From Acidobacteriota bacterium (GTDB lineage: Bacteria > Acidobacteriota > Blastocatellia > Pyrinomonadales > Pyrinomonadaceae), in contig JADKBM010000013.1 in assembly GCA_016715115.1 (NCBI GenBank), positions 423,475-487,474 on the forward strand: a stretch of DNA of 64,000 bases, in the 5' to 3' direction. A program made the position numbers and the translations under genes. The notes below the pieces were generated by a model that saw only the letters and a list, made by a program, of their open reading frames with translations, did not search any database and was not told the DNA's origin. The stretch's first letter is position 1; every line of letters begins with the position of its first letter. Positions 4,585 to 62,598 of the stretch are shown here, in pieces.

Positions 4585-6542
4585 TTCTCTCCTTTCGCCT
4601 TCTTCAAATTCTGTTTCGCTTCCTCAAAATCTGGTTTCAATTGAATCGCCTTTTCAAATTGCGGAATCGCTTGGGCCGTTTCCTTCTTTTCGACCAGAAT
4701 CTTGCCCAAGAAATTGTAAAGCTCCGGCTTTTCGGGTGTTTGCCGGATCAGTTCGCCAACCTGAGCCTGCGATTCATCGTAACGCTTCAGCTCAAAGAGC
4801 GCGAGCGCGAGTTTGAGCCGCGCGTCGAAGTTGTCCGGCGCCAGGAACAACAGACGGCTCAGCGCATCGACCGCCTTTGCGAGATTGTCTTTTCTTGCAT
4901 ACGCCGACGCAAGGTCGTCGAGCGTCGTGATAAAGATCGAGGGTGCCGGGCTTCCCGGAAGGTCGGCGGCGCGCCTCAGGCTGTCCTCCGCCTCTTCCGG
5001 CTTGCCCTGAAGTATCTGGGCGAGCGCCATATTCGAATAGGCCAGCGCGTAATCGGGCCGAATCGCGAGGCATTCTTTGAATTTCTGCTCGGCCTCGGCG
5101 AACTGTTTTCGCTTCGTTAGCAGAATGCCGTAGGTATTGTAGGCTTCAAAATAACCGAGATTGTCTGCGAGCGACTGCTTGCAGAAGGATTCGGCCTCGT
5201 CGAGCCGGTCCTCCAACGTCAGATGATGACAGAGATTATGGGATATCAGGAAGTTCCGCTGCGTCACCGCAAGCGTCCGTTTGTAAAGGATCTCATTGTC
5301 CTTCCAATAAGAAGCCTGAACGTATCCGGCAAAGGTCAGGCCGGCGATGAACAAACCGAACAAGGCGAAATAGATCGATTTCCCGATTCCCAACGCTTTG
5401 AAGACGTCGGCCGCGCCCCAGACGAGAATGATGAAAAGTCCGAAATATGGGACGTACGTGTAGCGGTCGGCCATCGGCTGCGCGCCGACCTGGACCAGTC
5501 CGATTACCGGCACGAGTGTTCCCAAGAACCAAAGCCAGCCCATCAAAAGATACTTTCTCCGGCCGATCTGCCAGATGGACAATGCGGTCATCGCCGCGAC
5601 AAAAAGCGTTCCGACGGCGATCTGCCAGACGGGAAAGTCGCGGTCGTACGGATACCAAACGCCGAGTTTCGCCGGATAGAAAAGCATTCCGGTGTACTTG
5701 GCATATGACAGGACGGCGTTAAGCGCACGCGTCGTCATCGGCAGATGCTCGAACGATTCCATCGCTCCGCCGGCCCGCTGCGCGATGAACGTGATGTACG
5801 ACGAAGCGGCCGACAGCGCGAAAAGCGGGATCTTTTCGGCGACGAGGGCGGGGAGGTCGCGAAATGACCGGAGCCGTTCGAGCGACCAGTAGTCCATCAG
5901 CAAGAGCACGCACGGCAGCGTCACAAGCATCGGTTTCGCCATCAGTCCGAGCGCGAGGAGGGCGAAGACGAGCAAGTAGGACAGCCAGAGTCGACGTAGA
6001 CGCGAGGCGACGCCCTCGCTTTCGTCCGTGTTCGCGCGCCGGGCAAAACCGATATATGCGAGCATCGTCAGCAGCCAGAAAAACGTCGAAAGAACATCTT
6101 TGCGTTCGGATACCCAGGCGACCGATTCGACGTGTGCCGGATGGACCGCGAACAGCGCCGCGACGATCACGCTCTTCCAGAAGGATCCCGTCATTCTCTG
6201 AAAAACGGTGAACGCGAGGATCGTGTTGAGAATATGAAAAACGACGTTCGTCGCGTGGTGTCCGCCGGGATTCTGGCCAAAGAACTCGACGTCGATCATA
6301 TGCGAGATCCACGACAGCGGGTGCCAGTTCGCCGCGTGAAACTGCGTGAACGCCCATTGGACGGACTGTTTGTTGACGCCGCTCGAAACGATCTGATTGC
6401 CGAAAACGTACAGATTGTCGTCGAGATTGATGAAGTTGAATCCGATCGTCTGGTAATAAATGACCATCACCAGTGCGGTCAGCGCCGCGTAAACGACCGT
6501 CTGCTGGTTCTCCTGAAAAAATCCCGGTTTCTTGTCTGACAC
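4581..6542 (-). CDS. Polytopic GT-C-like membrane protein with C-terminal TPR repeats (TMTC/PMT-like, DUF1736-type)
   Basis: 653 aa, GTG start. There are about 10 predicted TM helices, an acidic first-loop motif NLDDNLYVF, and about 6 TPR-like repeats in the last 250 aa (for example AYNTYGILLTKRKQFAEAEQKFKECLAIRPDY). Confidence 0.75.
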   Translation of the reverse strand: MSDKKPGFFQENQQTVVYAALTALVMVIYYQTIGFNFINLDDNLYVFGNQIVSSGVNKQSVQWAFTQFHAANWHPLSWISHMIDVEFFGQNPGGHHATNVVFHILNTILAFTVFQRMTGSFWKSVIVAALFAVHPAHVESVAWVSERKDVLSTFFWLLTMLAYIGFARRANTDESEGVASRLRRLWLSYLLVFALLALGLMAKPMLVTLPCVLLLMDYWSLERLRSFRDLPALVAEKIPLFALSAASSYITFIAQRAGGAMESFEHLPMTTRALNAVLSYAKYTGMLFYPAKLGVWYPYDRDFPVWQIAVGTLFVAAMTALSIWQIGRRKYLLMGWLWFLGTLVPVIGLVQVGAQPMADRYTYVPYFGLFIILVWGAADVFKALGIGKSIYFALFGLFIAGLTFAGYVQASYWKDNEILYKRTLAVTQRNFLISHNLCHHLTLEDRLDEAESFCKQSLADNLGYFEAYNTYGILLTKRKQFAEAEQKFKECLAIRPDYALAYSNMALAQILQGKPEEAEDSLRRAADLPGSPAPSIFITTLDDLASAYARKDNLAKAVDALSRLLFLAPDNFDARLKLALALFELKRYDESQAQVGELIRQTPEKPELYNFLGKILVEKKETAQAIPQFEKAIQLKPDFEEAKQNLKKAKGEK

Positions 6543-10692: not shown

Positions 10693-13110
10693 TCAGCGCG
10701 GCTTCGCGTTCTTGACCCACTTGTCGAACCATTCGACCTGCTCGGCGAGAACGGTTTCGATCGATTCACGGGCGCTGTAACCGTGGGACTCGAGCGGCAG
10801 CATCACGAGCCGTGCCGTGCCGCCGTTGCCCTGGATCGCGGCAAAGAGGCGTTCGGACTGGATCGGGAAGGTGCCCTGATTGTTGTCGGCCTCGCCGTGG
10901 ATCATCAACACAGGCTCATTGATCTTGTTGGCGAAAAAGAACGGCGAAACATTCTGGTAGAGTTCCTTCGCTTCCCAGAACGAGCGTCGTTCCGACTGAA
11001 AGCCGAACGGCGTCAAGGTGCGGTTGTAGGCCCCCGAACGAGCGATTCCGGCGCGGAAAATGTCCGAATGCGCGAGCAGGTTCGCGGTCATAAAGGCCCC
11101 GTAGCTGTGGCCGCCGACACCGACGCGGTCACGGTCGGTGACGCCCATCTCGACCGCCTTGTCGACCGCGGCCTGAGCTGCATCGACAACCTGCTTGATG
11201 AAGGTATCATTGACCGTCAAAGGATCGCCGACGATCGGCATCGTCGCGTCGTCGAGCACGGCATAGCCCTGGAGCAGGAAAAAGAGGTGTGAATAACTTC
11301 CGATCTGCGTGAACCGATTCGTCGAACCCGCGACTTGTCCGGCGGTCGAAGCATCGGTGAATTCGAGCGGATACGCCCAGACGACGGTCGGAAGCCGCGT
11401 CCCTTGTTTGTAATTCGGCGGCAAATAGAGCGTGAACGAGAGATCGACGCCGTCGGCGCGCTTGTATTTTACGAGCTGTTTCGTGATCCCGCGCAGTTGC
11501 GGCGCCGGATCCTTGAATTCGGTAAACTGACGATCGTAAACCGCGAGACATTCTGTCTTCGGCGGACAAACCTGGCGGAGACGAAGATTCGGCGGCTCGG
11601 TCGTCGATTCACGACGCGTGATGAACTGCGTCCCGTTGTCGTTCTGGAGAGCAACAAACGTTTCATAAGACGTCGTGTCCGAACGGAAGACCTCTTCGAA
11701 CTTCAGCGTCTGCAGATTCATCCGGCGCAGAAACGGCCGATCGCCTTCGGGCGAAGCGCCGGCGCCGGTCAGGAAGATATCGTCCCCGTCCTGATGCATA
11801 ACCGCGAAACCGTTCGCGAGACGTTTCGTCAGCGGTTGGCCGATGTCGCCGTAGCGATCGTTGACGCTGAGGTCGGAGATGAGCCGCGGCGTGCCCGGAT
11901 TACGGTAATCGACCGCGAAAACGCGTCGGCGCTGGGAGTCTCGATTGTAGTCGTAGAAGAACATCAGCCCGTCGCGCTCGCCGAAAACGCGGCCCATAAG
12001 ACGCTGTTCGATTTTGAACATCTCGGCCGGCGCACCATTGAACGGGGCGTCGATGCGAACCAGACGGTCGCGCTGCGCGACCTTTTTGCGCGGGTCGCCG
12101 TCGTCGAGCGCTTCGGCCCAAACGAGCGACGCGCCCTCGGTCGGAATCCATCCGTAGCTGCGCGGTCCGACGGGAACGCCCTGCGCGGGCAGGTTGTCCT
12201 GGAGCGGGATGCTCGCCACCTTGTAAACCGACTTGCCGTTCAGATCCCAGACTTCGACTTCCTTCGGAAAGCGGTTGAACGGGAAAAGATAAGAGAACGG
12301 TCGCTTGATGCGCGACGTCAGGATGTATTTTCCGTCCGGCGAAACGTCGCCGTTATCGAAGATTCCCGGCGCTCCGATGTTCTTGATCTTGCCGTCGAGG
12401 CTTACGACGGCAATCTGCGACGTCGCGTAATACTCGAACAGTTTTTCATCGTTGGGCGATTTGAGAAGATCCTGAAACGTCTGGACGACGCCTGTCTTTC
12501 CGGCCGTTTCCTGCATATTCGGAGACGTCGGAACGAGGTTCTGATACGCCGGCGCCGGACCCCGGTTCGCCGGAACAAGGCTGACGATCAGATGCTTCTG
12601 GTCGGGCATCCAGTCAAACTCGCCAAAAGCGGTGTTGACCTGCACGCCGTCGATCTTGCGGGCCTTGGCGGTCGCGGTTTCGACGATCCAGAGTTCGATT
12701 CCGGTCGGGGTGATATTGCCGACCGCGATGAATTTGCCGTCGCCGCTCCACGTCGGCGAAATGATCTTCGCTCCGGCGGGCAAGGCGACCGCGGTTTCCT
12801 TGCCGTCGGCGATGCTCTTGAGCGTCAGTTTGACGAAATACGGCTGTCGATGCTGCGAATTGCTGTTCGGATTGATACGCAAACCGGCGATCCGGAGCAT
12901 CGGTTCCGCAAGTTCGGCGATCGGCGGATAGCGCAACGGTTCGAGCAACGCGACGCGGTCCTTTGCGGGGCTGACCGAGGTCGAAGGGATCGCCGGTGCA
13001 TTGAGAACGTCGAGGATCTCCTTCGGCGGTTTCTTGTATTGCGCGTCGGCGGTTACCGCGATCGCGAGAATGGCCAGCACCAAAGCGGCCAGGTAATTCA
13101 TCTTTTTCAT
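10693..13110 (-). CDS. S9 family serine peptidase (prolyl oligopeptidase / dipeptidyl aminopeptidase type), secreted
   Basis: 805 aa. Signal peptide, N-terminal propeller-like region, and a C-terminal alpha/beta hydrolase with nucleophile elbow GGHSYGAFM and HGEADNN...H. Confidence 0.85.
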   Translation of the reverse strand: MKKMNYLAALVLAILAIAVTADAQYKKPPKEILDVLNAPAIPSTSVSPAKDRVALLEPLRYPPIAELAEPMLRIAGLRINPNSNSQHRQPYFVKLTLKSIADGKETAVALPAGAKIISPTWSGDGKFIAVGNITPTGIELWIVETATAKARKIDGVQVNTAFGEFDWMPDQKHLIVSLVPANRGPAPAYQNLVPTSPNMQETAGKTGVVQTFQDLLKSPNDEKLFEYYATSQIAVVSLDGKIKNIGAPGIFDNGDVSPDGKYILTSRIKRPFSYLFPFNRFPKEVEVWDLNGKSVYKVASIPLQDNLPAQGVPVGPRSYGWIPTEGASLVWAEALDDGDPRKKVAQRDRLVRIDAPFNGAPAEMFKIEQRLMGRVFGERDGLMFFYDYNRDSQRRRVFAVDYRNPGTPRLISDLSVNDRYGDIGQPLTKRLANGFAVMHQDGDDIFLTGAGASPEGDRPFLRRMNLQTLKFEEVFRSDTTSYETFVALQNDNGTQFITRRESTTEPPNLRLRQVCPPKTECLAVYDRQFTEFKDPAPQLRGITKQLVKYKRADGVDLSFTLYLPPNYKQGTRLPTVVWAYPLEFTDASTAGQVAGSTNRFTQIGSYSHLFFLLQGYAVLDDATMPIVGDPLTVNDTFIKQVVDAAQAAVDKAVEMGVTDRDRVGVGGHSYGAFMTANLLAHSDIFRAGIARSGAYNRTLTPFGFQSERRSFWEAKELYQNVSPFFFANKINEPVLMIHGEADNNQGTFPIQSERLFAAIQGNGGTARLVMLPLESHGYSARESIETVLAEQVEWFDKWVKNAKPR

Positions 13111-17974: not shown

Positions 17975-18793
17975 CTACGGCTTCTTGACGGCGGGCGTCG
18001 GCGTCGGTTTCGGGTCCTTTACTTCCTCTTCGGTGTCGTCGAGAATCCTCACCTCGCTGCGGCCGACGCGATAGTTGGCATATTTGACGCGGACGCGCAT
18101 CTTGACGACCTGGCCGTTGTCGAAGACGAGTTCATCGTCGGCCATCGAGAAAGAAGGGAACCAGTACTTTCCGTCGACGCTCTCTCGCCAGGTTTCGATG
18201 ATCGGAAACCGCTGTTTGCCTTCGGGAACGGCCTTGCCCTTTGATTTGACGATCATCAGGTCCCGGTCATCGACCCAAATTCGTCCGGTGAACAGGCGCA
18301 GGTTCGATTTCTTCCAATCGGGAATGACTTTCGGCGTGACGTCGAAGACATACAGATCGAGTTCGTCGATCTTTTCCTTGCCGACGAACCTGAAGTTGTA
18401 TTCCCTGACGTTTTTCGGTTCGATCGCGAAGGGGTTGATGCCGCCGAGATCTTCAATATCTTCGGGGCTGATGCTGATCTCTTTGAGCGTCGAGATCGGC
18501 GCATAGATGATCCGTTCGAAACGCGAACCGTCGGTCGTGAATGTAATGAACGAGTTTCGGATGTAAGTCCCGGTGATCTGCCCGCCGAGTCCGATCGTCT
18601 GGATCTTCGCGTCGCGGTTGAAGGCATAGATGCCGAGCGCCTGGCGAAACTCGAACTCATTGTCGCTGAACTTCTTGACGATCCGGTCGATCTCGCTCTG
18701 GCTCAAAGTGGACGGGACGATGTTCGACGCCTGCGCCAGCGCCGAAATTGCGAAAATGCCCAAAACAAGCACGAATGTCGTAAGTTTTCTCAT
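17975..18793 (-). CDS. Secreted LolA-like / outer-membrane-lipoprotein-sorting-like protein
   Basis: 272 aa. Signal peptide, a beta-rich body and a Pro/Thr/Lys tail. The assignment rests on overall resemblance only. Confidence 0.5.
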   Translation of the reverse strand: MRKLTTFVLVLGIFAISALAQASNIVPSTLSQSEIDRIVKKFSDNEFEFRQALGIYAFNRDAKIQTIGLGGQITGTYIRNSFITFTTDGSRFERIIYAPISTLKEISISPEDIEDLGGINPFAIEPKNVREYNFRFVGKEKIDELDLYVFDVTPKVIPDWKKSNLRLFTGRIWVDDRDLMIVKSKGKAVPEGKQRFPIIETWRESVDGKYWFPSFSMADDELVFDNGQVVKMRVRVKYANYRVGRSEVRILDDTEEEVKDPKPTPTPAVKKP

Positions 18794-27894: not shown

Positions 27895-28452
27895 GGATTT
27901 CTGATTTCGGATTTTGGATTGTCAGAAACCGACGCGTTCAATTGTATGCCCCGGCTTCACAATCAACAAGTATTTCGGCAAGCCAAGGTCCAAAATCCAG
28001 ATTTCAGATTCCAGATTCCAGATTCCAGAGATTCCAGAGATTCCAGATTCCAGATTTCAGATTCCAGAGATTCCAGATTCCAGATTCCAGAGATTCCAGA
28101 TTCCAGATTCCAGATTCCAGAAATTCCAGATTCCAGATTTCAGATTCCAGATTCCAGAAATTCCAGATTCCAGAGATTCCAGATTCCAGATTCCAGAGAT
28201 TCCAGAAATTCCAGATTTCAGATTCCAGATTTCAGATTCCAGAAATTCCAGATTCCAGAGATTCCAGAAATTCCAGATTCCAGATTCCAGAGATTCCAGA
28301 AATTCCAGATTCCAGATTCCAGAGATTCCAGATTCCAGAGATTCCAGATTCCAAGAATTCAACATCTTCCAGATTCAATGGAATTTGGAATTTGGAATTT
28401 GGAATCTGGAATATCTGAAATCCCAAATCCCAAATCCCAAATCCCAAATCCA
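27895..28452. repeat. Largest array: 46 tandem 7/9-nt units (AGATTCC / AGAGATTCC / AGAAATTCC) with nested inverted arms
   Basis: My parse of 28001-28355 gives 29 heptamers, 16 nonamers and 1 terminal 8-mer. Inverted short arm GGAATTT/GGAATCT at 28378-28413. (CCCAAAT)n at 28414-28451 pairs with GGATTTCTGATTTCGGATTTTGGATT at 27895-27920. Confidence 0.95.
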
Positions 28453-49475: not shown

Positions 49476-49686
49476 TTGTTAATTTCGGATTCAAGATTCA
49501 AGAAAGATTTCAGATTCCGGATTCCAGGTATCCGGATTCCAGCGTTTAGGATTCCAGATTCCAGGATTCCAGGATTCCAGGATTCCAGGATTCCAGATTC
49601 CAGATTCAAGATTTCAGATTCCAAGAATTCAAGATTCCAAGAATTCAAGAATGATTCAAGATTCCAGGATTCCAGGATTCCAAGAG
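49476..49686. repeat. Heptamer array (GGATTCC / AGATTCC / AGATTCA family)
   Basis: Runs such as ggattccaggattccaggattccaggattccagattccagattcaagatttcagattcc. It lies upstream of the CDF gene start. Confidence 0.9.
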
Positions 49687-49965
49687 CCTGTCGGAAAAAT
49701 CGATTCAGTGTGCGGAGCAAACGCACATACGATAGCACCACGCGAAGCGGAGCGGAACGTGGTGTCAGCCGCGATCACCTCCAGCGAGCGTGTGAAACAC
49801 GCGGAACTGTTGCAAAAACGAGAGTTACGCGTGTTACACACGCTTAGGACGTCGGTTAGACAAGCCACCACGTTCCGCTCCGCTTCACGTGGTGTTATCG
49901 CAAGTTCGCGTGCTTCGCACGCTTGAAGAAGTAATGCCCGTTCCCAAACGGCTTTCTCCGACAGG
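49687..49965. repeat. About 279-nt nested palindromic element (possible structured RNA or MITE-like element)
   Basis: The outer arms are cctgtcgga (49687-49695) and tccgacagg (49957-49965). The 34-nt arms are gatagcaccacgcgaagcggagcggaacgtggtg (49731-49764) and caccacgttccgctccgcttcacgtggtgttatc (49866-49899), with 2 mismatches. At least four GCGTG-type mini-hairpins are present: tgtgcggagcaaacgcaca, gcgtgtgaaacacgc, gcgtgttacacacgc and gcgtgcttcgcacgc. Confidence 0.8.
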
Positions 49966-50085
49966 TTCCCAAGATCCAGATTCAAGATCCAAGATTCCAA
50001 GGATTCCAAATCCAGATTCCAAATTCCAGATTCCAGATCCGAATTCAAGATTCCAGAATTTCAAGGGTTCCAGATTGGGATCCCG
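49966..50085. repeat. Degenerate heptamer array (AGATTCC / AGATCCA family)
   Basis: ttcccaagatccagattcaagatccaagattccaaggattccaaatccagattccaaattccagattccagatccgaattcaagattccag. Confidence 0.85.
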
Positions 50086-50249: not shown

Positions 50250-50392
50250 AAAGCTCCAGATTCAAGATTCCAGATTGAAGGATCTCGAGTCCGGGCGTTT
50301 TAGATTTCTTGAATCGTGGAATCTGGAATCTTGGAATCGAAAATCCCAAATCCCAAATCCCAAATCCCAAATCCCAAATCCCAAATCCCAAA
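50250..50392. repeat. Heptamer arrays ending in (CCCAAAT)x7, abutting the xdhC stop
   Basis: ccagattcaagattccagattgaag...ggaatctggaatcttggaatcg, then 7 CCC tracts at 50345-50389. The final aaatca supplies the TGA of xdhC (50393-50395). Confidence 0.9.
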
Positions 50393-51421
50393 TCAGCGGT
50401 TCTTGACCGCGATGATCTCGGCCGCGATCGATATGGCGATCTCTTCAGGCGTTCGGCTGTTGATCGGAAGCCCGATCGGCGTCCGGATCCGTTTTAGCCG
50501 TTCGCCTTCGAAACCCTCCTTTTTCAATGAGTTCAGCAGAACCTTCATCTTGGCCTTGCTTCCCAAAACCCCGAAGTATTTGAAGTTCTTGTCAACAAGG
50601 CGACGGATGACGATCTCGTCGAAGCGGTATCCGAGCGTCATTGCGACGACGTAATGGTCCTCGCCGGAGTCGATCATCTGGTCGATCGACTCGTATGAGT
50701 CAATGATCGTTTTGCGATCCGCGAAGACGTTCTTCTCGACCGTGTTGAGTTCGTTTCGGTCATCGAACAACTCGATGTGAAAATCGAGTTTCGCCATCAA
50801 CTCCGAAAGTGCAAGCGCGCAATGCCCGCCGCCGACGATGAAAAGTCTCGGCTTTCGACCGATCGTTTCTTCATAAACGAACTTCGAAGCTCCGCCCTTA
50901 GAAGTTCCGCCGTATGGAGTTCCGCCTTCAGGCGGCCCTTCCTCCGCCACCCAGAACCCGATTTCCGACGAACCGAAGTCATCGGAGATCGCCAGCCCGC
51001 GTTCAGTGATCTTGAACCGGATCACCCGCGATTCGCCGAGCGCGTCGCAAATCGCACGTACCGTCGGCAGATCACCCGCGTCGAGCGCGCAGACGATCAC
51101 CGTCTGGCTTCCCGAGCAGATCATCCCGCTCGCGTCCGGAACATTCGGCCGGTGAACAAGCGTTTGGATTTTGGATTTTGGATTTTGGACTTCGGATTCG
51201 TCGGTGCGATCGTTGCGCGCTTGATCGACGAGCGCAACCTCCATCACACCGCCGCCGATCGAGCCAATCATTTCGTCATCGGCGACAACCATTTTGAATC
51301 CCGCGCGGCCGGGCGAACTGCCTGAACTCTCGGCGACGACGATCAAGATCGCGCGTTCGCCCGAATCCAGACGTTCGCGGGCAAAGTTCCAGAGTTCCGA
51401 TTCAAACCTCATTCGATGCAT
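50393..51421 (-). CDS. xdhC: XdhC/CoxI family molybdenum-cofactor insertion accessory protein
   Basis: ATG at 51421 (or 51412). The N-domain reads AILIVVAESSGSSPGRAGFKMVV and the C-terminal Rossmann reads RLFIVGGGHCALALSELM. It carries in-frame repeat insertions (QNPKSKIQ; PPEGGTPYGGTSKGGASK). Confidence 0.8.
   Translation of the reverse strand: MHRMRFESELWNFARERLDSGERAILIVVAESSGSSPGRAGFKMVVADDEMIGSIGGGVMEVALVDQARNDRTDESEVQNPKSKIQTLVHRPNVPDASGMICSGSQTVIVCALDAGDLPTVRAICDALGESRVIRFKITERGLAISDDFGSSEIGFWVAEEGPPEGGTPYGGTSKGGASKFVYEETIGRKPRLFIVGGGHCALALSELMAKLDFHIELFDDRNELNTVEKNVFADRKTIIDSYESIDQMIDSGEDHYVVAMTLGYRFDEIVIRRLVDKNFKYFGVLGSKAKMKVLLNSLKKEGFEGERLKRIRTPIGLPINSRTPEEIAISIAAEIIAVKNR
50882..50937. 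repeat. Intragenic (xdhC) 15-nt x3 tandem repeat overlapping the 22-nt hairpin element
   Basis: The sense strand reads GGCGGAACTCCATAC GGCGGAACTTCTAAG GGCGGAGCTTCGAAG (GGTPY GGTSK GGASK). GGAGTTCCGCCTTCAGGCGGCC at 50916-50937 is identical to 52359-52380. Confidence 0.8.
51167..51208. repeat. In-frame intragenic heptamer array in xdhC
   Basis: ggatttt ggatttt ggatttt ggacttc ggattcg (tcggtgc), translated on the minus strand as ESEVQNPKSKIQ. Confidence 0.8.
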
Positions 51422-51531
51422 TTTACTTCGTTTTCTGTCTGATCGCGACGGGTACTCGGACGTTGCCCGAACTGCGGGCCAACGCCGGAGCGCGGGTTGA
51501 AGAAGGCCAGATTGTGCGTTAAGGAAGTGTC

Positions 51532-51708
51532 TTTCCCGCGAAATACGCCAAAGGCGCGAAAAATGGCATTCTTTCACCTTGTTCTTCGGAAAATTCGCGG
51601 GAAGTTCCTTCAACCCAGATTACTCATTAAACTCAATTTCCCGCGAAATACCCAAAAACAACATCAAAAATGGCATTTTTGCGGTTTTGGCGTGTTTCGC
51701 CGGAAAGA
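51532..51708. repeat. Two tandem copies of a TTTCCCGCGAAATAC hairpin element between xdhB and xdhC
   Basis: Copy 1 is tttcccgcgaaatacgccaaaggcgcgaaaaatggcattc...ggaaaattcgcgggaag. Copy 2 is tttcccgcgaaatacccaaaaacaacatcaaaaatggcattt...gcgtgtttcgccggaaag. Confidence 0.7.
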
Positions 51709-51763
51709 GATTTTCTATTACGTAATTTGGGTTCAAATGCGTAAATTCGGATTTGGCCGACCG

Positions 51764-53980
51764 TTACGATCCGTACAGATTCATCAGGATCTTTTCCGGA
51801 GTCAACGGCGCGTCGAATGGCGGCAAACTCTCTTGATTGAATGCTTTGACGGCTTCGCGGAGGGCGAAATAGGCGCCGATGCCGTACATCAGGGGCGGTT
51901 CGCCGACGGCCTTTGAATTGAAAACCGCGAGATTTTCCTTGAGATTATCCAGCGAGACCACCTCGATCGTTTTCGGAGCCGAGTAAACATCGGGAATCTT
52001 GTAGGTTGAGAGCGCGTTCGAACGCAAACGGCCGATTTCATCGTAAACGACCTCTTCCATCGTCATCCAGCCGATTCCCTGAACGATGCCGCCCTCGATC
52101 TGACCGAGGTCGACCGCCGGGTTCATCGATTGACCGAAGTCGTGGCAAACCTTGACGTAATCGAATTCGTAGGTTCCGCGAAGGCAATCGACCGTAACGC
52201 CGACGATCGCCGTTCCATAAACGTGATATGCGAACGGATGGCCTTTGGCAACCGACCAGTCGAAACCGATTCCCGGCGTCGCGTAATGTGCGTGCTCGCT
52301 GAGATTGACGCGTCGCAAATGCGCCTCGTTCACAAGTTCGACCCAGCTCGGAGCGCTTGGAGTTCCGCCTTCAGGCGGCCTTCCAACCATCGATGCCTCA
52401 ACTTCCTTTAGCCTTTCAAGAATCGTCCCGCAGGCGATCGCCGTCGCCTTGCCGTTCAGATCGGCCGCCGCCGAAGCCGCCGTCGGCGACGTGTTGGCGA
52501 TCCGCAAAGTATTGGTCGTGTGGACCTTGATAAATCCGATCGGGATGCCGAAGACGTTCGCCGCGACCTGTGCGATCTTGGTGTTCACGCCCTGTCCCAT
52601 TTCGACCGCGCCGGTCGAAACCGCGACCGTTCCGTCGGTGTAAACGTGGACCAGCGAACGCGCCTGGTTCATCGGCGTTTTAGTGAACGAGATCCCGAAA
52701 CAGACGGGCTGGATGGCGACGCCTTTTTTCAGATACTTGCTCGATGCATTGAATTCAAACGCATCGCGTTTGAGACGTTCGAATTCGTATTTCGCGTCGG
52801 CCTGCATCCAGCTTGTTTCGGCCTCGGATTCAGCGATCTGGCCGTACGGGAATTCGTCGCCGGTCTTTAGGAGATTGCGGCGTTGGACCTCGTCTTTCGC
52901 GACGCCGAGCTTCTCGGCAGCGTGCGCGATCGCCGATTCGATGACGAACATTCCCTGCGGTCCGCCGAATCCCCGAAAAGCCGTGTTCGGCGGCAGGTTC
53001 GTCTTGCAAGAATAGGCGACGGCCGAAACGTTCGGGATAAAATACGAGTTCGAGCAGTGGAAAAGCGTGCGTTCGAGAACCGGAAGCGAGAGGTCGCACG
53101 CCGCGCCTGCGTTTTGGAAGAAGGTCACGTCATACGCGACGATCTTCAGATCGGCATCGAGCCCGATTCTGTAATCGGCCGAGTACGGATGCCGTTTTCC
53201 GGTCATCCGCATATCATCCATCCTGTGCAGCGCGAATTTCACCGGACGCCTTGTGATCTGTGTGCCGACGGCGCAAATGGCCGCCCAAGCGTTTGCCTGA
53301 TCTTCCTTGCCCCCGAAGCCGCCGCCGAGTCTCGTCACGTCGACCTCGATCAGATTCATCGGCAGCGCCGTAACCCTCGCAACCGCGCGCTGGACCGCCG
53401 TCGGACCCTGTGTCGACGAATAAACGCGGATTCCGTCGCTCTCGGCCGGAATCGTAAAGGCGCCCTGAGTTTCGATGTACAGATGCTCCTGGCCGCCCGA
53501 ATGGGTGCGGCCTTCGAAAACGTGCGCGCAGCTCTTGAGTGCCGATTCGGCGTCGCCGAGTTTGAATCGTTTCGGCGGCGCGATCAGGCTGTTTCTTGCA
53601 AATGCCTCGCGTTCATCGGTGATCGCTTCGAGCGGTTCGATCTCGACCGAGATCAGTTTCGCCGCGGCACGCGCCTGCTCGTCCGTTTCGGCGAGCACGA
53701 TGGCGATCGGCATTCCGCAGAAATGAACTTCGTCTTCCGCAAGCAGGGGTTCGTCCGGCAAGATGCCGCCGATCTGATTCTCGCCGACAAGATCCTTTGC
53801 GGTGATAACCCGTGCGACGCCTTTTGCAGTTTCCGCTTTGCTCGTGTTGAGGGCCGTGATTCGACCGTGGGCAACCGGCGAGTCGAAAACGCACGCGAAA
53901 AGCGTCCCTTCGACGACCGGAATATCGTCGAGATAAACCGATTCGCCGCGTACATATGATTTTGAGTCAAGGTTTTTCAT
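51764..53980 (-). CDS. xdhB: Xanthine dehydrogenase / aldehyde oxidase molybdopterin-binding subunit
   Basis: 738 aa. GESVYLDDIP..., GGGFGGKE and conserved Mo-hydroxylase blocks. It carries an in-frame 22-nt element (RPPEGGTPS). Confidence 0.9.
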   Translation of the reverse strand: MKNLDSKSYVRGESVYLDDIPVVEGTLFACVFDSPVAHGRITALNTSKAETAKGVARVITAKDLVGENQIGGILPDEPLLAEDEVHFCGMPIAIVLAETDEQARAAAKLISVEIEPLEAITDEREAFARNSLIAPPKRFKLGDAESALKSCAHVFEGRTHSGGQEHLYIETQGAFTIPAESDGIRVYSSTQGPTAVQRAVARVTALPMNLIEVDVTRLGGGFGGKEDQANAWAAICAVGTQITRRPVKFALHRMDDMRMTGKRHPYSADYRIGLDADLKIVAYDVTFFQNAGAACDLSLPVLERTLFHCSNSYFIPNVSAVAYSCKTNLPPNTAFRGFGGPQGMFVIESAIAHAAEKLGVAKDEVQRRNLLKTGDEFPYGQIAESEAETSWMQADAKYEFERLKRDAFEFNASSKYLKKGVAIQPVCFGISFTKTPMNQARSLVHVYTDGTVAVSTGAVEMGQGVNTKIAQVAANVFGIPIGFIKVHTTNTLRIANTSPTAASAAADLNGKATAIACGTILERLKEVEASMVGRPPEGGTPSAPSWVELVNEAHLRRVNLSEHAHYATPGIGFDWSVAKGHPFAYHVYGTAIVGVTVDCLRGTYEFDYVKVCHDFGQSMNPAVDLGQIEGGIVQGIGWMTMEEVVYDEIGRLRSNALSTYKIPDVYSAPKTIEVVSLDNLKENLAVFNSKAVGEPPLMYGIGAYFALREAVKAFNQESLPPFDAPLTPEKILMNLYGS
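52359..52380. repeat. 22-nt hairpin element inside xdhB, identical to the copy in xdhC
   Basis: GGAGTTCCGCCTTCAGGCGGCC (stem CCGCC/GGCGG, loop TTCA) is translated in frame as PPEGGTP. Confidence 0.85.
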
Positions 53981-53992
53981 TACGAATTAGAT

Positions 53993-54470
53993 GGTAGACG
54001 GTAGACGGTAGACGGTAGAGGGTAGACGGTAGACGGTAGAGGGTAGACGGTAGACGGTAGACGGTAGAGGGTAGACGGTAGACGGTAGAGGGTAGACGGT
54101 AGAGGGTAGACGGTAGACGGTAGACGGTAGACGGTAGACCGCCAACCTCTCACTGCTCACCTCTCACCTCTCACCTCTCACTGCTCACCTCTCACTGCTC
54201 ACCTCTCACTGCTCACCTCTCACTGCTCACCTCTCACTGCTCACCTCTCACCGCTCACCTCTCATTGCTCACCTCTCACTCACTGCTCACCTCTCACCTC
54301 TCACCTCTCACCGACCACTGACCACCGACCACTGACCACCGACCACTGCTCACTGCTCACCGCTCACCGCTCACCGCTCACTGCTCACCGCTCACTGCTC
54401 ACCGCTCACCGCTCACTGCTCACCGCTCACCGCTCACCGCTCACCGCTCACCGCTCACCGCTCACTGCCA
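53993..54470. repeat. Composite heptamer arrays filling the xdhA-xdhB spacer
   Basis: 21 units of GGTAGAC/GGTAGAG (53993-54139). Then CTCTCAC/TGCTCAC units (about 54147-54310), CGACCACTGACCAC units (about 54311-54347) and GCTCACC/GCTCACT units (to about 54470) that include the xdhA stop and last codons. Confidence 0.95.
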
Positions 54471-55899
54471 CGAAGTGCGCCCGGAAAAGCTGGCGCGCCA
54501 ACAGACGTTTGTATTCGGCCGAACCGCGAACGTCGGAGATCGGCGCGATCTCCGTTTGCAGGATCGCCTCCGCTTCTTCGAGGATCGCATCGTTGATCGG
54601 TTTTCCGCTCAGGAACGCCGAGGTCTTTCTTAACAACAAAGGCGTCGGCGCGACCCCGCCGATCGAGACGCGCGCCGTTTCGACAACATCGCCCGAAAGC
54701 CTGAGCGCGATCGCCGTATTAACAGAAGCGATGTCAAGATAGGTTCGTTTCGAGACCTTTTCAAAATTGAAATGCGTGAAATCCTTGCGAATTGAGATCT
54801 TCGAAATGATCTCCGACTCAACCTTTGCGAGCTGCTTGTAACCCAAATACAAATCAGATAACGCAATGTTCCGAATTCCGAAATCCGAATTCCCAATTCC
54901 GAAATCGCGTAGTTCCAATTCGGCGTCGAGCGCCAGAAAAAAGACCGTCATATCGCCGATCGGCGAGGCATTTACAAAATTGCCGGCGAGCGTCGCCATA
55001 TTCCTGATCGGCGTCGACGAAACCAATTTCAAATACTTGTCAAGGTTCGGAAAAAGCCGATGGAAGACTTCAGACTCGAGCAAGTCGGTGACGACGACAG
55101 ACGGGCCGATCTCGACCGTTTCGTCGGTCTCGCGGATGAACCGAAGCGCAGGATCGTCAAACAAACTCGTCGCACCCGCGTGGACCATTTCGTCGTGCTT
55201 CTGAACGTAAAGGTCCGTGCCGCCGGCGACGAATCTTGGGGTGGTGATTTCGGATGATACGGATTTCAGACCTTCGGAGTCGGGATGTTCGCGCACCAAC
55301 AATTCGAGACGCCGCCCGATGGATTCGAAATATTTCGGAACCGCACCGGCGGCGATCGCCTTCTCGATTTGCGACTGTGACTTGTTGAGCATCGCATTGC
55401 CGAAATCCGAAATCCCAAATCCCAAATCCGAAATCCTCTCGCACGCCCGCTCGATCGACTTGTAACCCGTGCAGCGGCAAATGTTTCCGTCGATCGCCGC
55501 AACCACCGATTCTTTGGTTTTCTGACCGTCGCCGAGGCAAAAACCGGTCAGAGACATCACGAATCCAACCGTGCAGAATCCGCATTGAGTTCCGGATTCG
55601 TCGACCAACGCTGCCTGCGCGGGTGTCAGGCTTCCGTCGGCCGGGTTGATTCCTTCGACAGTCACGATATGCTTGCCGCGCGCATTCAAGAGCGGCATCA
55701 GGCACGATGTCATCGAACGATATCTGAGGTCTCCGTCCTTGAGTTCACCGACGAGGATCGTGCACGCCCCGCAATCCCCTTCGCGGCAGCCGATCTTCGT
55801 TCCCTTCAGATTCTTGTGATACCGAACAAAGTCGAGCACCGTCGTTCCGCCTGGGAGATCGGTTTCGACGGATTGATTGTTGAGAATAAATTCGATCAT
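54448..55899 (-). CDS. xdhA: Xanthine dehydrogenase small subunit (2x [2Fe-2S] + FAD-binding domains)
   Basis: The ATG at 55899 gives MIEFILNNQSV. Contains CREGDCGACT, CGFCTVGFVMS and CRCTGYKSI, then FAD_binding_5-like VAGGTDLYV. There are two in-frame heptamer insertions, and the last codons are repeat-encoded. Confidence 0.85.
   Translation of the reverse strand: MIEFILNNQSVETDLPGGTTVLDFVRYHKNLKGTKIGCREGDCGACTILVGELKDGDLRYRSMTSCLMPLLNARGKHIVTVEGINPADGSLTPAQAALVDESGTQCGFCTVGFVMSLTGFCLGDGQKTKESVVAAIDGNICRCTGYKSIERACERISDLGFGISDFGNAMLNKSQSQIEKAIAAGAVPKYFESIGRRLELLVREHPDSEGLKSVSSEITTPRFVAGGTDLYVQKHDEMVHAGATSLFDDPALRFIRETDETVEIGPSVVVTDLLESEVFHRLFPNLDKYLKLVSSTPIRNMATLAGNFVNASPIGDMTVFFLALDAELELRDFGIGNSDFGIRNIALSDLYLGYKQLAKVESEIISKISIRKDFTHFNFEKVSKRTYLDIASVNTAIALRLSGDVVETARVSIGGVAPTPLLLRKTSAFLSGKPINDAILEEAEAILQTEIAPISDVRGSAEYKRLLARQLFRAHFVAVSGER
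54871..54909. repeat. In-frame intragenic heptamer-type array in xdhA (FAD domain)
   Basis: ccgaattccgaaatccgaattcccaattccgaaatcgcg, translated on the minus strand as RDFGIGNSDFGIR. Confidence 0.75.
55401..55436. repeat. In-frame intragenic heptamer array in xdhA (linker after the 2Fe-2S domains)
   Basis: cgaaatc cgaaatc ccaaatc ccaaatc cgaaatc c, translated on the minus strand as SDLGFGISDFG. Confidence 0.8.
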
Positions 55900-55907
55900 T
55901 ATTCCAG

Positions 55908-56030
55908 CCACGAATCGCACCAATTTCACGAACGCAACCCTTTATGCGACGTTGTTGATCCAACCGCCAAAAGCGCGGCGCATCAGGTGCGTTCCTGAAA
56001 AAACAGTCGTGAAATTCGTGCGATTCGTGG
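55908..56030. repeat. 23-bp inverted repeat (1 mismatch) with 77-nt spacer, immediately upstream of xdhA
   Basis: ccacgaatcgcaccaatttcacg (55908-55930) and cgtgaaattcgtgcgattcgtgg (56008-56030). The stem extends via gaacgca/tgcgttc. Confidence 0.85.
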
Positions 56031-59935: not shown

Positions 59936-60129
59936 TTTTGGATTTGCGATTTGCGATTTTGGATTCCAGATATTCCAGATATTCCAGATTCCAACATCGA
60001 AAATTCCAAATTCCAAATTCCAAATTCCAAATTCCAAATTCCAAAATCCAAAATCCAAAATCGCAAATCGCAAATCGCAAATCGCAAATCGCAAATCGCA
60101 AATCGCAAATCGCAAATTCCAAAATCGAA
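59936..60129. repeat. Composite heptamer array between the VOC gene stop and the glycosylase start
   Basis: gattttg gatttgc gatttgc gattttg, then gattcca/gatattcca units, then aaattcc x6, aaaatcc x2-3, aaatcgc x8, and finally aaaatcgaa-ATG. The 5' arm is the reverse complement of the 3' AAATCGC block. Confidence 0.95.
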
Positions 60130-60717
60130 ATGCTTGCCCGTCAATTCTATCTTCGTACCGACACGCTCGCGATCGCCAGGGATCTGATCGGTAAACTGCT
60201 CATCGTTCAGGATCCCGAACACGGACGCGTGTCCGGGATGATCGTCGAAACCGAGGCGTATCTCGGTGAGATCGACAGGGCGGCGCATTCCTACGGCGGG
60301 CGGCGAACGGCGCGAAACGAGATCACCTACGCGGCCGGCGGTCATACTTACGTCTTTTTCGTTTACGGAATGTACTTTCAGCTCAACATCGTCTGCGGTC
60401 CCGAAGACTCGCCGCATGTTTGTCTGATCCGCGCCGTCGAACCCGTCGAAAACATCGAACTGATGCGCGAACGGCGAAAGACCGTGCAGGATCTGAATTT
60501 GACTTCGGGACCCGGAAAATTATGCGTCGCCCTCGGTATCAACAAAAGCTTTAACGGCGCGGATCTGCTCGGAAATCGAATTTGGCTGGAAGATTTTCGT
60601 ACAGTCGGCGGGGAAGAGGTCGGAAGCGGGAAACGCGTCGGCATCGATTACGCCGGGGAATTCGCCGCCAAACCCTGGCGCTTCTGGTTGAAAGGGAACA
60701 AGTTCGTGTCGCGTTGA
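60130..60717 (+). CDS. DNA-3-methyladenine glycosylase (Mpg/AAG family)
   Basis: The ATG at 60130 gives MLARQFYLRTDTLAIARDLIGKLL...IVETEAYLG..DRAAHSYGGRRT.RNE.....GGH.YVYF.YGM. The ORF-track start at 59932 is pure repeat sequence. Confidence 0.85.
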   Translation: MLARQFYLRTDTLAIARDLIGKLLIVQDPEHGRVSGMIVETEAYLGEIDRAAHSYGGRRTARNEITYAAGGHTYVFFVYGMYFQLNIVCGPEDSPHVCLIRAVEPVENIELMRERRKTVQDLNLTSGPGKLCVALGINKSFNGADLLGNRIWLEDFRTVGGEEVGSGKRVGIDYAGEFAAKPWRFWLKGNKFVSR

Positions 60718-62534: not shown

Positions 62535-62598
62535 CGTTTTGAGTTACGCCGTCTGGCGGCGATGCTTCAGATTTGGCCCCCAACCGCGAAGTCGGATA

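Follow-up and report, generated by a model that had tools for sequence, protein, structure and literature searches.

In a 64,000-nt stretch of an Acidobacteriota genome (contig JADKBM010000013.1, positions 423,475 to 487,474; hereafter the window, to which coordinates refer unless another locus is named), the genes xdhC and xdhB carry the same 22-nt hairpin sequence, GGAGTTCCGCCTTCAGGCGGCC, at 50916–50937 and 52359–52380. Here, we report that this sequence belongs to a dispersed family of short hairpins that form inverted doublets and flank genes for an HUH-type tyrosine transposase. The 22-mer is very probably one arm of a repeat of the repetitive extragenic palindromic (REP) type, found singly or as a doublet forming a hairpin (REPIN), with its own subfamily of REP-associated tyrosine transposase (RAYT), and its two copies in the xdh genes are ancient, in-frame residents of tolerant regions of XdhB and XdhC. 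On this reading, the coincidence of an identical 22-mer in two genes is explained as the footprint of a REP/REPIN system.

A hairpin translated in XdhC and XdhB

Both host genes lie on the minus strand. xdhC (50393–51421) encodes a maturation factor of the XdhC/CoxI family (Pfam XdhC_CoxI PF02625 at residues 18–70 and XdhC_C PF13478 at residues 193–336), and xdhB (51764–53980) encodes the molybdopterin-binding subunit of xanthine dehydrogenase (TIGR02965, E=4.8e-236). The XdhB protein is 100% identical to P0001 from an Acidobacteria metagenome-assembled genome (MAG), and its relatives are Pyrinomonadaceae. The repeat, first noticed as a 22-mer in a first-pass annotation of the letters, is present at both places, and its exact identity in fact extends one base further to the left, giving a 23-mer, TGGAGTTCCGCCTTCAGGCGGCC, with exactly two copies (50915–50937 and 52358–52380). 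No other site in the window matches the 22-mer, even with up to three mismatches allowed. The earlier judgement that such a pair is unlikely by chance is borne out by 100 dinucleotide-preserving shuffles of the window, none of which reached two matches.

The 22-mer is antisense to the gene in both cases; the sense codons, CCG CCT GAA GGC GGA ACT CCA, spell PPEGGTP at XdhC residues 163–169 (in a 342-amino-acid reading) and at XdhB residues 535–541. A codon view upholds this shared reading as well as the CCGCC/GGCGG stem and TTCA loop that had been proposed. The xdhC arm (50915–50937, plus strand) comprises a GGAGTT tag, the CCGCC stem, the TTCA loop and the GGCGG stem, and matches the consensus arm of the family described below. 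The xdhB arm and its flanks (52355–52387, plus strand) form an imperfect extended hairpin, UUGGA...UCCAA, with a folding energy of -18.2 kcal/mol. As structures, single arms are modest: in a 44-nt mRNA context they fold at -18 to -19 kcal/mol, with z of about -2.3.

In XdhC, the insert falls between the two Pfam domains, in the stretch that links the N-terminal domain to the Rossmann domain, and this linker is hypervariable in the homologue alignment. Human xanthine oxidoreductase (2E1Q) has a gap opposite the PPEGGTP segment of XdhB, between two conserved stretches, which identifies the insertion site as an indel-prone loop. In xdhC, the outer half of the arm (GGCGGAACTCCATAC) is followed by two diverged copies of itself, forming a 15-nt tandem repeat of three units (50882–50926, minus strand). 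Tandem Repeats Finder recovers this previously flagged array (period 15, 3.0 copies, 80% matches), whose sense codons, GGC GGA ACT CCA TAC / GGC GGA ACT TCT AAG / GGC GGA GCT TCG AAG, encode GGTPY GGTSK GGASK. At two other loci of the family (L071 and L063), the outer arm is likewise present in tandem.

The repeat family and an associated transposase

We scanned one genome per species, covering 185,579 species, with the pattern GAGTTNCGCCTTCAGGCG and obtained at least 120 loci. By record title, the matches listed include about 44 from Acidobacteriota (Blastocatellia, Pyrinomonadaceae and Chloracidobacterium), 34 from Verrucomicrobiota, 15 from Planctomycetota, 6 from Lentisphaerota and 3 from Desulfobacteraceae, together with about eight chance matches in proteobacterial or actinobacterial coding sequence that have none of the flanks. 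Among the same listed matches, some arm loci sit on contigs of 4.6–5.4 Mb, and several MAGs hold multiple loci, with at least nine in the Blastocatellia MAG F1F2.bin.491 (L009, L022, L030, L085, L110, L112, L117 and others). In 2.9 million viral contigs (IMG/VR), the 20-mer GGAGTTCCGCCTTCAGGCGG occurs on only six viral or proviral contigs (L137–L142), which gives no hint of a phage vector.

The arm unit consists of a tag, (G/A)GAGTT, a 5-bp GC-rich stem and a 4-nt loop; its commonest version is GAGTT-CCGCC-TTCA-GGCGG, usually with GTTYG in front. The full form of the element, GTTYG-GAGTT-[C CGCC TTCA GGCG G]-spacer-[hairpin]-AACTC-CRAAC, joins two arms in inverted orientation. An inverted partner, searched for within 110 nt, is present for 66 of the 143 arms at the loci listed, at a spacing of 0–89 nt; solo arms and single-hairpin forms are also common (77 of 143), and the minimal form is one perfect hairpin (L093 and L117). 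The stems of the partner hairpins vary yet pair (CCGCC/GGCGG, CCGCG/CGCGG, CCGGC/GCCGG, ACGCG/CGCGT and CCGCA/TGCGG). Of 43 partner hairpins whose sequence departs from the search pattern, collected with no filter on pairing, 31 have Watson–Crick pairs at all five positions. The outer flanks of the doublets also co-vary (TTTG/CAAA, CATG/CATG, GTTG/CAAC and TTTT/AAAA).

All-against-all clustering of the open reading frames (ORFs) from 120 loci found no general neighbour of the arms, returning generic kinases, response regulators and a three-locus cluster of RAYT genes. A phmmer search of the ORFs at arm loci with E. coli RayT (from NC_000913.3) matches ORFs at L092, L058 and L108, which also match the NCBIfam model NF047646 'REP-associated tyrosine transposase' (E=5e-23, 1e-21 and 3.5e-14, respectively), L092 above the curated cut-off and the other two just below it; with the IS200 model, only L092 scores, and weakly (E=0.004). 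The alignment with E. coli RayT shows no variation at columns P57, H59, H61 and Y115 (numbered as in that protein), and the HUH motif and catalytic tyrosine are intact. The RAYT gene of L058 (Ca. Udaeobacter) lies between inverted arms, one 57 nt and the other 38 nt away from the ends of the ORF, and at L108 and L092 (Acidobacteriota chromosome) the gene has arms and doublets to its left and right. Homologues of the L058 protein number 1,749 at E<=1e-10, and for some of them the source gives the name REP-associated tyrosine transposase. Two further loci, L131 (6.6-Mb genome; L131/L132) and L133 (L133–L136), were fetched by protein homology alone and carry arm doublets on both sides of the RAYT gene. 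They are an independent replication of the link between arm and RAYT, and arms thus flank RAYT genes in five independent loci (L058, L092, L108, L131 and L133).

A different RAYT-like gene (Pfam Y1_Tnp, 180 amino acids, HUH motif and tyrosine intact) stands just upstream of xdhB in two Pyrinomonadaceae-like genomes (L127, 6760–7302; L128, 5944–6486), and in L127 it lies between xdhA and xdhB. We considered this gene as the partner of the element and rejected it, since it is flanked by its own, unrelated multi-hairpin repeats (GCGGCTATGCCGC, GGAAAGGCTGTGCCTTTCC and GAGGCTACGCCTC).

Arms are depleted from long reading frames, 65% lying within stop-to-stop ORFs that span 150 codons or more vs 89% of random positions. 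Such containment is too noisy in GC-rich genomes for classing copies as genic or intergenic or for assessing frame bias, and we therefore counted only in-gene cases supported by domains. Where loci are annotated, each copy outside the xdh genes lies between genes (at 1519 and 6967 in L001, the relative introduced below, and at 18301 and 18378 in L129). At L093, both arms are read in frame between the domains of a 1013-amino-acid DUF7133-HEAT protein, and in-frame copies are also found in a Ser/Thr kinase (L028) and a GDE_N protein (L035). In other Acidobacteriota MAGs, an arm is in frame in methionine synthase MetH near residue 1070 (L113, 4771–4860) and in dihydroorotate dehydrogenase PyrD near residue 265 (L046, 7253–7270).

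The in-frame copies also distinguish DNA from peptide. The peptide GVPPSGG is the same DNA as PPEGGTP in the other orientation (GGAGTTCCGCCTTCAGGCGG), and both readings occur within single XdhB homologues and in the L093 protein. TPEGVT, found in homologues as TPEGVTLN, corresponds to ACGCC-TGAA-GGCGT, a variant stem whose pairing is kept by a compensating change, and in three XdhB homologues a GVPPSGG or VTPSGV segment is present as well, a few residues upstream. The opposite-strand reading and the compensated stem together point to a nucleic-acid element, not a peptide motif. The codons CCG CCT GAA GGC GGR ACT are identical in six xdhC genes, including four more distant ones (L127–L130) that have them at the same linker position. 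The original suspicion of a small mobile-type element that tolerates translation thus fares well: the repeat is dispersed, in both orientations, apparently mostly intergenic, often arranged in inverted doublets, present on the flanks of RAYT genes and in frame in other proteins.

Age of the copies and competing explanations

We compared the window with the closest relative available, the Pyrinomonadaceae MAG GCA_041752475.1 (L001), whose genes are 82% identical in nucleotide sequence for xdhB (63% at third codon positions) and 72% for xdhC (56% at third positions). L001 has an arm at the same site in both genes, each with one substitution: CCGCCCGAAGGCGGAACTCCAAAC in xdhB, with a TTCG loop and a 12-nt duplicate (GGAACTCCAAAC/GGAACTCAAAGC), and CCGCCTGAAGCCGGAACTCC in xdhC, with an 18-nt repeat in two copies. 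Both insertions are therefore older than the split of the two genomes, and the proposed 'recent insertion or gene conversion' finds no support in this result; the layout of the tandem duplications of the outer arm differs between the window and L001. Retention by both window copies of the family consensus, which is unchanged in other phyla, appears to be the best account of their identity, not mutual exchange, and gene conversion between them is not needed for it. A relaxed arm search turned up a third copy, a decayed doublet (62536–62584, plus strand) in a spacer between convergent genes; its sequence, GTTTTGAGTTACGCCGTCTGGCGG-CGATGC-TTCAGATTTGGCCCCCAAC, aligns with an intact doublet, GTTAGGAGTTCCGCCTTCAGGCGG-CGGTG-CCTGAAGGCGGAACTCCAAAC, in the orthologous L001 spacer. 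Relaxed arm searches of the window gave no further copy.

Across wider samples of homologues, P(E/K)G(G/V)T occurs in 7 of 120 XdhB and 17 of 120 XdhC sequences, at hypervariable loop or linker positions, and most homologues are without it. The XdhC copies have decayed in many lineages (KPLEGGTQN, KPSEDDTRN and KPSKDVTQS). The first-pass expectation that orthologues would lack the segment thus holds for distant ones, which are without it or have decayed or different versions, and fails for close ones, which carry it; conservation of that kind had been taken to speak for an ordinary conserved motif confined to these genes, yet many copies exist elsewhere. One XdhB loop site with the flank KDGA(Y/F) holds intact doublets of different stems in different genomes: CCGCC in L003 (11590–11700), ACGCC, as a perfect 24-bp palindrome, in L005 (5425–5500) and CAAAC in L143 (about 2800–2900). 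L144 has a decayed version (about 11600–11700). Either this site was hit repeatedly, or resident copies were renewed toward the current repeat type of each genome.

Several points weigh against assigning the family to the REP type. The two described REP superfamilies have 5′ tags GTAG or CGTC (PMC3733652), and the tag here, (G/A)GAG(TT), is neither; it reads GGAG or AGAG followed by TT, one base from GTAG, and degenerate tags such as GTGG are described in O. terrae (PMC3733652). REPs are normally specific to a species or genus, whereas this arm is near-invariant over several phyla, and it is almost the same in Verrucomicrobiota and Acidobacteriota, whose RAYTs are only 52% identical, which is unusual for REPs. 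The window holds three copies only, and phmmer with E. coli RayT found no RAYT-like ORF in its 64 kb. Among 240 homologues, neither insertion has a clean empty-site allele. Most of the evidence comes from MAGs, in which some taxonomic labels (for example, Paceibacterota and Heliomicrobium) may reflect mis-binning. Separate counts of stem pairs agree with the covariation, but on arms pre-selected for pairing. That RAYT would mobilize the repeats is argued by analogy with E. coli RayT and the IS200/IS605 transposase TnpA.

The constancy of the arm, together with the varied stems at the one XdhB loop site, admits a second account, in which the REPIN–RAYT system is either very ancient or spreading horizontally, its arm staying near-constant over Acidobacteriota, Verrucomicrobiota and Planctomycetota as its transposase drifts to about 50% identity, and its in-gene copies, instead of being inert relics, are renewed or homogenized by re-targeting or by conversion to the master sequence of the genome. 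We consider this account unlikely, though it deserves some weight; if true, the system would keep rewriting the loops of housekeeping enzymes.

It is improbable that the repeat is instead a functional nucleic-acid structure, such as a terminator, an mRNA stabilizer or a translational pause, kept in the xdh genes for that role. The covarying stems would suit such a role, as would the great stability of full doublets (-52.6 kcal/mol, z -9, for that of L038), the G–U pairs allowed by GTTTG...CGAAC flank combinations and the position of REPs near gene 3′ ends. The arm cores differ between the window and L001 at 1 of 21 nt in each gene, against 72–82% overall identity (binomial estimate about 0.09 for xdhB and about 0.01 for xdhC); these differences, fewer than the flanks predict, could reflect constraint or conversion, on a sample too small to decide. 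However, no Rfam 15 family matches the element in 18 full-doublet loci or in window positions 50300–54600 (E<=10), no neighbouring gene is conserved, the xdh copies are single arms with a 5-bp stem only, and decay has overtaken both the intergenic copy of the window and the XdhC copies of many lineages. REPs are known to have secondary roles as RNA-level signals, and a functional structure is compatible with the REP interpretation.

The comparison with L001 also makes it very unlikely that a recent local event, by gene conversion or template switching, copied the 23-nt tract between xdhB and xdhC. The placement of the copies is what such an event would leave: 1.4 kb separates them, they share orientation and frame as well as 23 identical nt, no other intact copy lies in the 64 kb, and, with one indel allowed, both continue into a further TTCC (GGCGGCC(C)TTCC). 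But each has an orthologous copy at the same L001 site, in genes with third codon positions 56–63% identical, and the same 20-mer is found unchanged in unrelated genomes and phyla. We rejected the TTCC as a mark of private common origin: the extra TTCC of xdhB is CCCCGCCCCAACC in the L001 orthologue, and the agreement looks coincidental.

Inverted arms around a variable spacer, with a total length of 45–130 nt and dispersed copies, would also be expected of a miniature inverted-repeat transposable element (MITE) derived from a DDE-type insertion sequence, the arms being its terminal inverted repeats. This origin is hard to credit, since no DDE transposase family recurs near the arms and the sole recurring gene linked to the element is the HUH-Y1 RAYT. 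Each arm has its own compensated hairpin, which points to single-strand recognition, solo and single-hairpin forms are common, and target-site duplications were not noticed in the flanks of the arms listed.

That PPEGGTP serves as a Pro/Gly linker, either functional or favoured by convergence, with nucleotide identity arising from codon bias, is scarcely credible: PPEGGT(P/Q)N does recur among XdhB and XdhC homologues and both window copies are in loops or linkers, but the same DNA is common in intergenic spacers and is also read as GVPPSGG and possibly in other frames, its codon choice is constant in the six xdhC genes despite 2- to 4-fold degeneracy, and the peptide decays freely in many XdhC lineages and is wholly missing from many orthologues.

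Proposed mechanism, surroundings and known systems

We propose that RAYT would recognize the hairpin and tag on single-stranded DNA and would cut and join there, causing the repeats to spread, as modelled on its characterized relatives. Two ancient copies may have landed where extra residues are tolerated, one in a loop on the XdhB surface and one in the linker joining the two XdhC domains, each in a stop-free orientation and reading frame that yields the Pro/Gly-rich PPEGGTP. Replication slippage in xdhC may then have copied the outer half of the arm into the three-unit 15-nt array. The peptide itself is presumably neutral or at least tolerated.

In Pyrinomonadaceae-like Acidobacteriota, and in Verrucomicrobiota as well, conserved enzymes (XdhB, XdhC, MetH and PyrD) draw part of their loops and linkers from short genomic repeats. 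REPIN–RAYT biology has mostly been studied in Proteobacteria, and one arm sequence common to several phyla bears on the strict vertical inheritance of REPIN–RAYT systems. For annotation, the arm peptides PPEGGT and GVPPSGG would flag repeat-derived inserts, not functional motifs.

The surroundings of the xdh genes are rich in other repeats. XdhA, the flavin/FeS subunit, is encoded upstream of xdhB (54448–55929), and the spacer between the two genes is almost wholly occupied by (TAGACGG)x22 and (ACCGCTC)x46. Heptamer tandem arrays are abundant in the window (27996–28353, 49488–50057, 50341–50394, 53988–54465, 59981–60131 and others), examples being (TCCAGAT)x46, (AAATCCC)x7.7 and (ATTCCAA)x21, and in other genomes such arrays often adjoin REP arms (L097, L024, L017 and L050). 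One of them, (TTTGGAT)x5, lies within xdhC itself (51163–51198) and is translated as QNPKSKIQ; in XdhC homologues, different heptamer arrays are translated at this linker (ISNFKFQI, ITNYELRI and SQIANRK), which indicates that this linker gathers several kinds of genomic repeat. The spacer between xdhB and xdhC contains an imperfect palindrome of about 195 nt (51522–51716) with 41-nt arms that are 80% complementary, built of direct and inverted TTTCCCGCGAAATAC units and occurring once in the window. The Rfam side matches were weak miRNA-like matches to this separate palindrome and an unrelated fluoride riboswitch (RF01734, 49.3 bits), which in the Pyrinomonadaceae MAG of L073 lies at 5881–5941, directly downstream of a REP doublet at 5816–5875.

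A full-text literature search with sequence strings gave primer coincidences only and no description of the family. The strings PPEGG, PPSGG and GGAACTCC do not occur in the supplementary tables of PMC3733652, and the family is therefore missing from that catalogue. What is already known is the REP/REPIN–RAYT kind of system and the existence of in-frame REPs; what is new is this repeat family, of which our searches by sequence found no description.

REP/REPIN repeats with their RAYT (TnpA_REP) were reportedly described in E. coli and Pseudomonas by Nunvar in 2010, Bertels and Rainey in 2011 and Ton-Hoang in 2012. The present family resembles them in its tagged short hairpin, its inverted doublets with variable spacers and its apparently mostly extragenic location near gene 3′ ends, as well as in the arms that flank a single HUH-Y1 transposase gene (the REPtron layout) and the long life of copies at orthologous sites; it differs in a stem of only 5 bp per arm. 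The RAYTs found here have an NHYH motif and a Pro-rich N terminus, as in RAYT subclass 2.8 of PMC6006769, a survey that recorded this subclass only in Cyanobacteria. With the ends of IS200/IS605 elements (IS608 and ISDra2), the family shares an HUH-Y1 enzyme, subterminal hairpins and a short adjacent motif that would serve as guide or cleavage site on single-stranded DNA. In contrast to those ends, the repeats are non-autonomous and do not delimit a mobile unit that contains the transposase gene, and the proteins score with NF047646.

The Rickettsia palindromic elements (RPE) are said to have been described by Ogata and colleagues in 2000. RPE-1 is about 100–150 bp long. The family described here has another sequence and another host phylum, and takes the form of 23-nt solo arms or 45–130-nt doublets; because the host is an Acidobacteriota MAG, we do not claim membership of an RPE family. 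What it has in common with the in-frame intragenic REPs of other families, those of Opitutus terrae and Rickettsia RPE-4/6 (PMC3733652), is a palindromic repeat that is translated in frame in tolerant regions of proteins and belongs to a family also found between genes.

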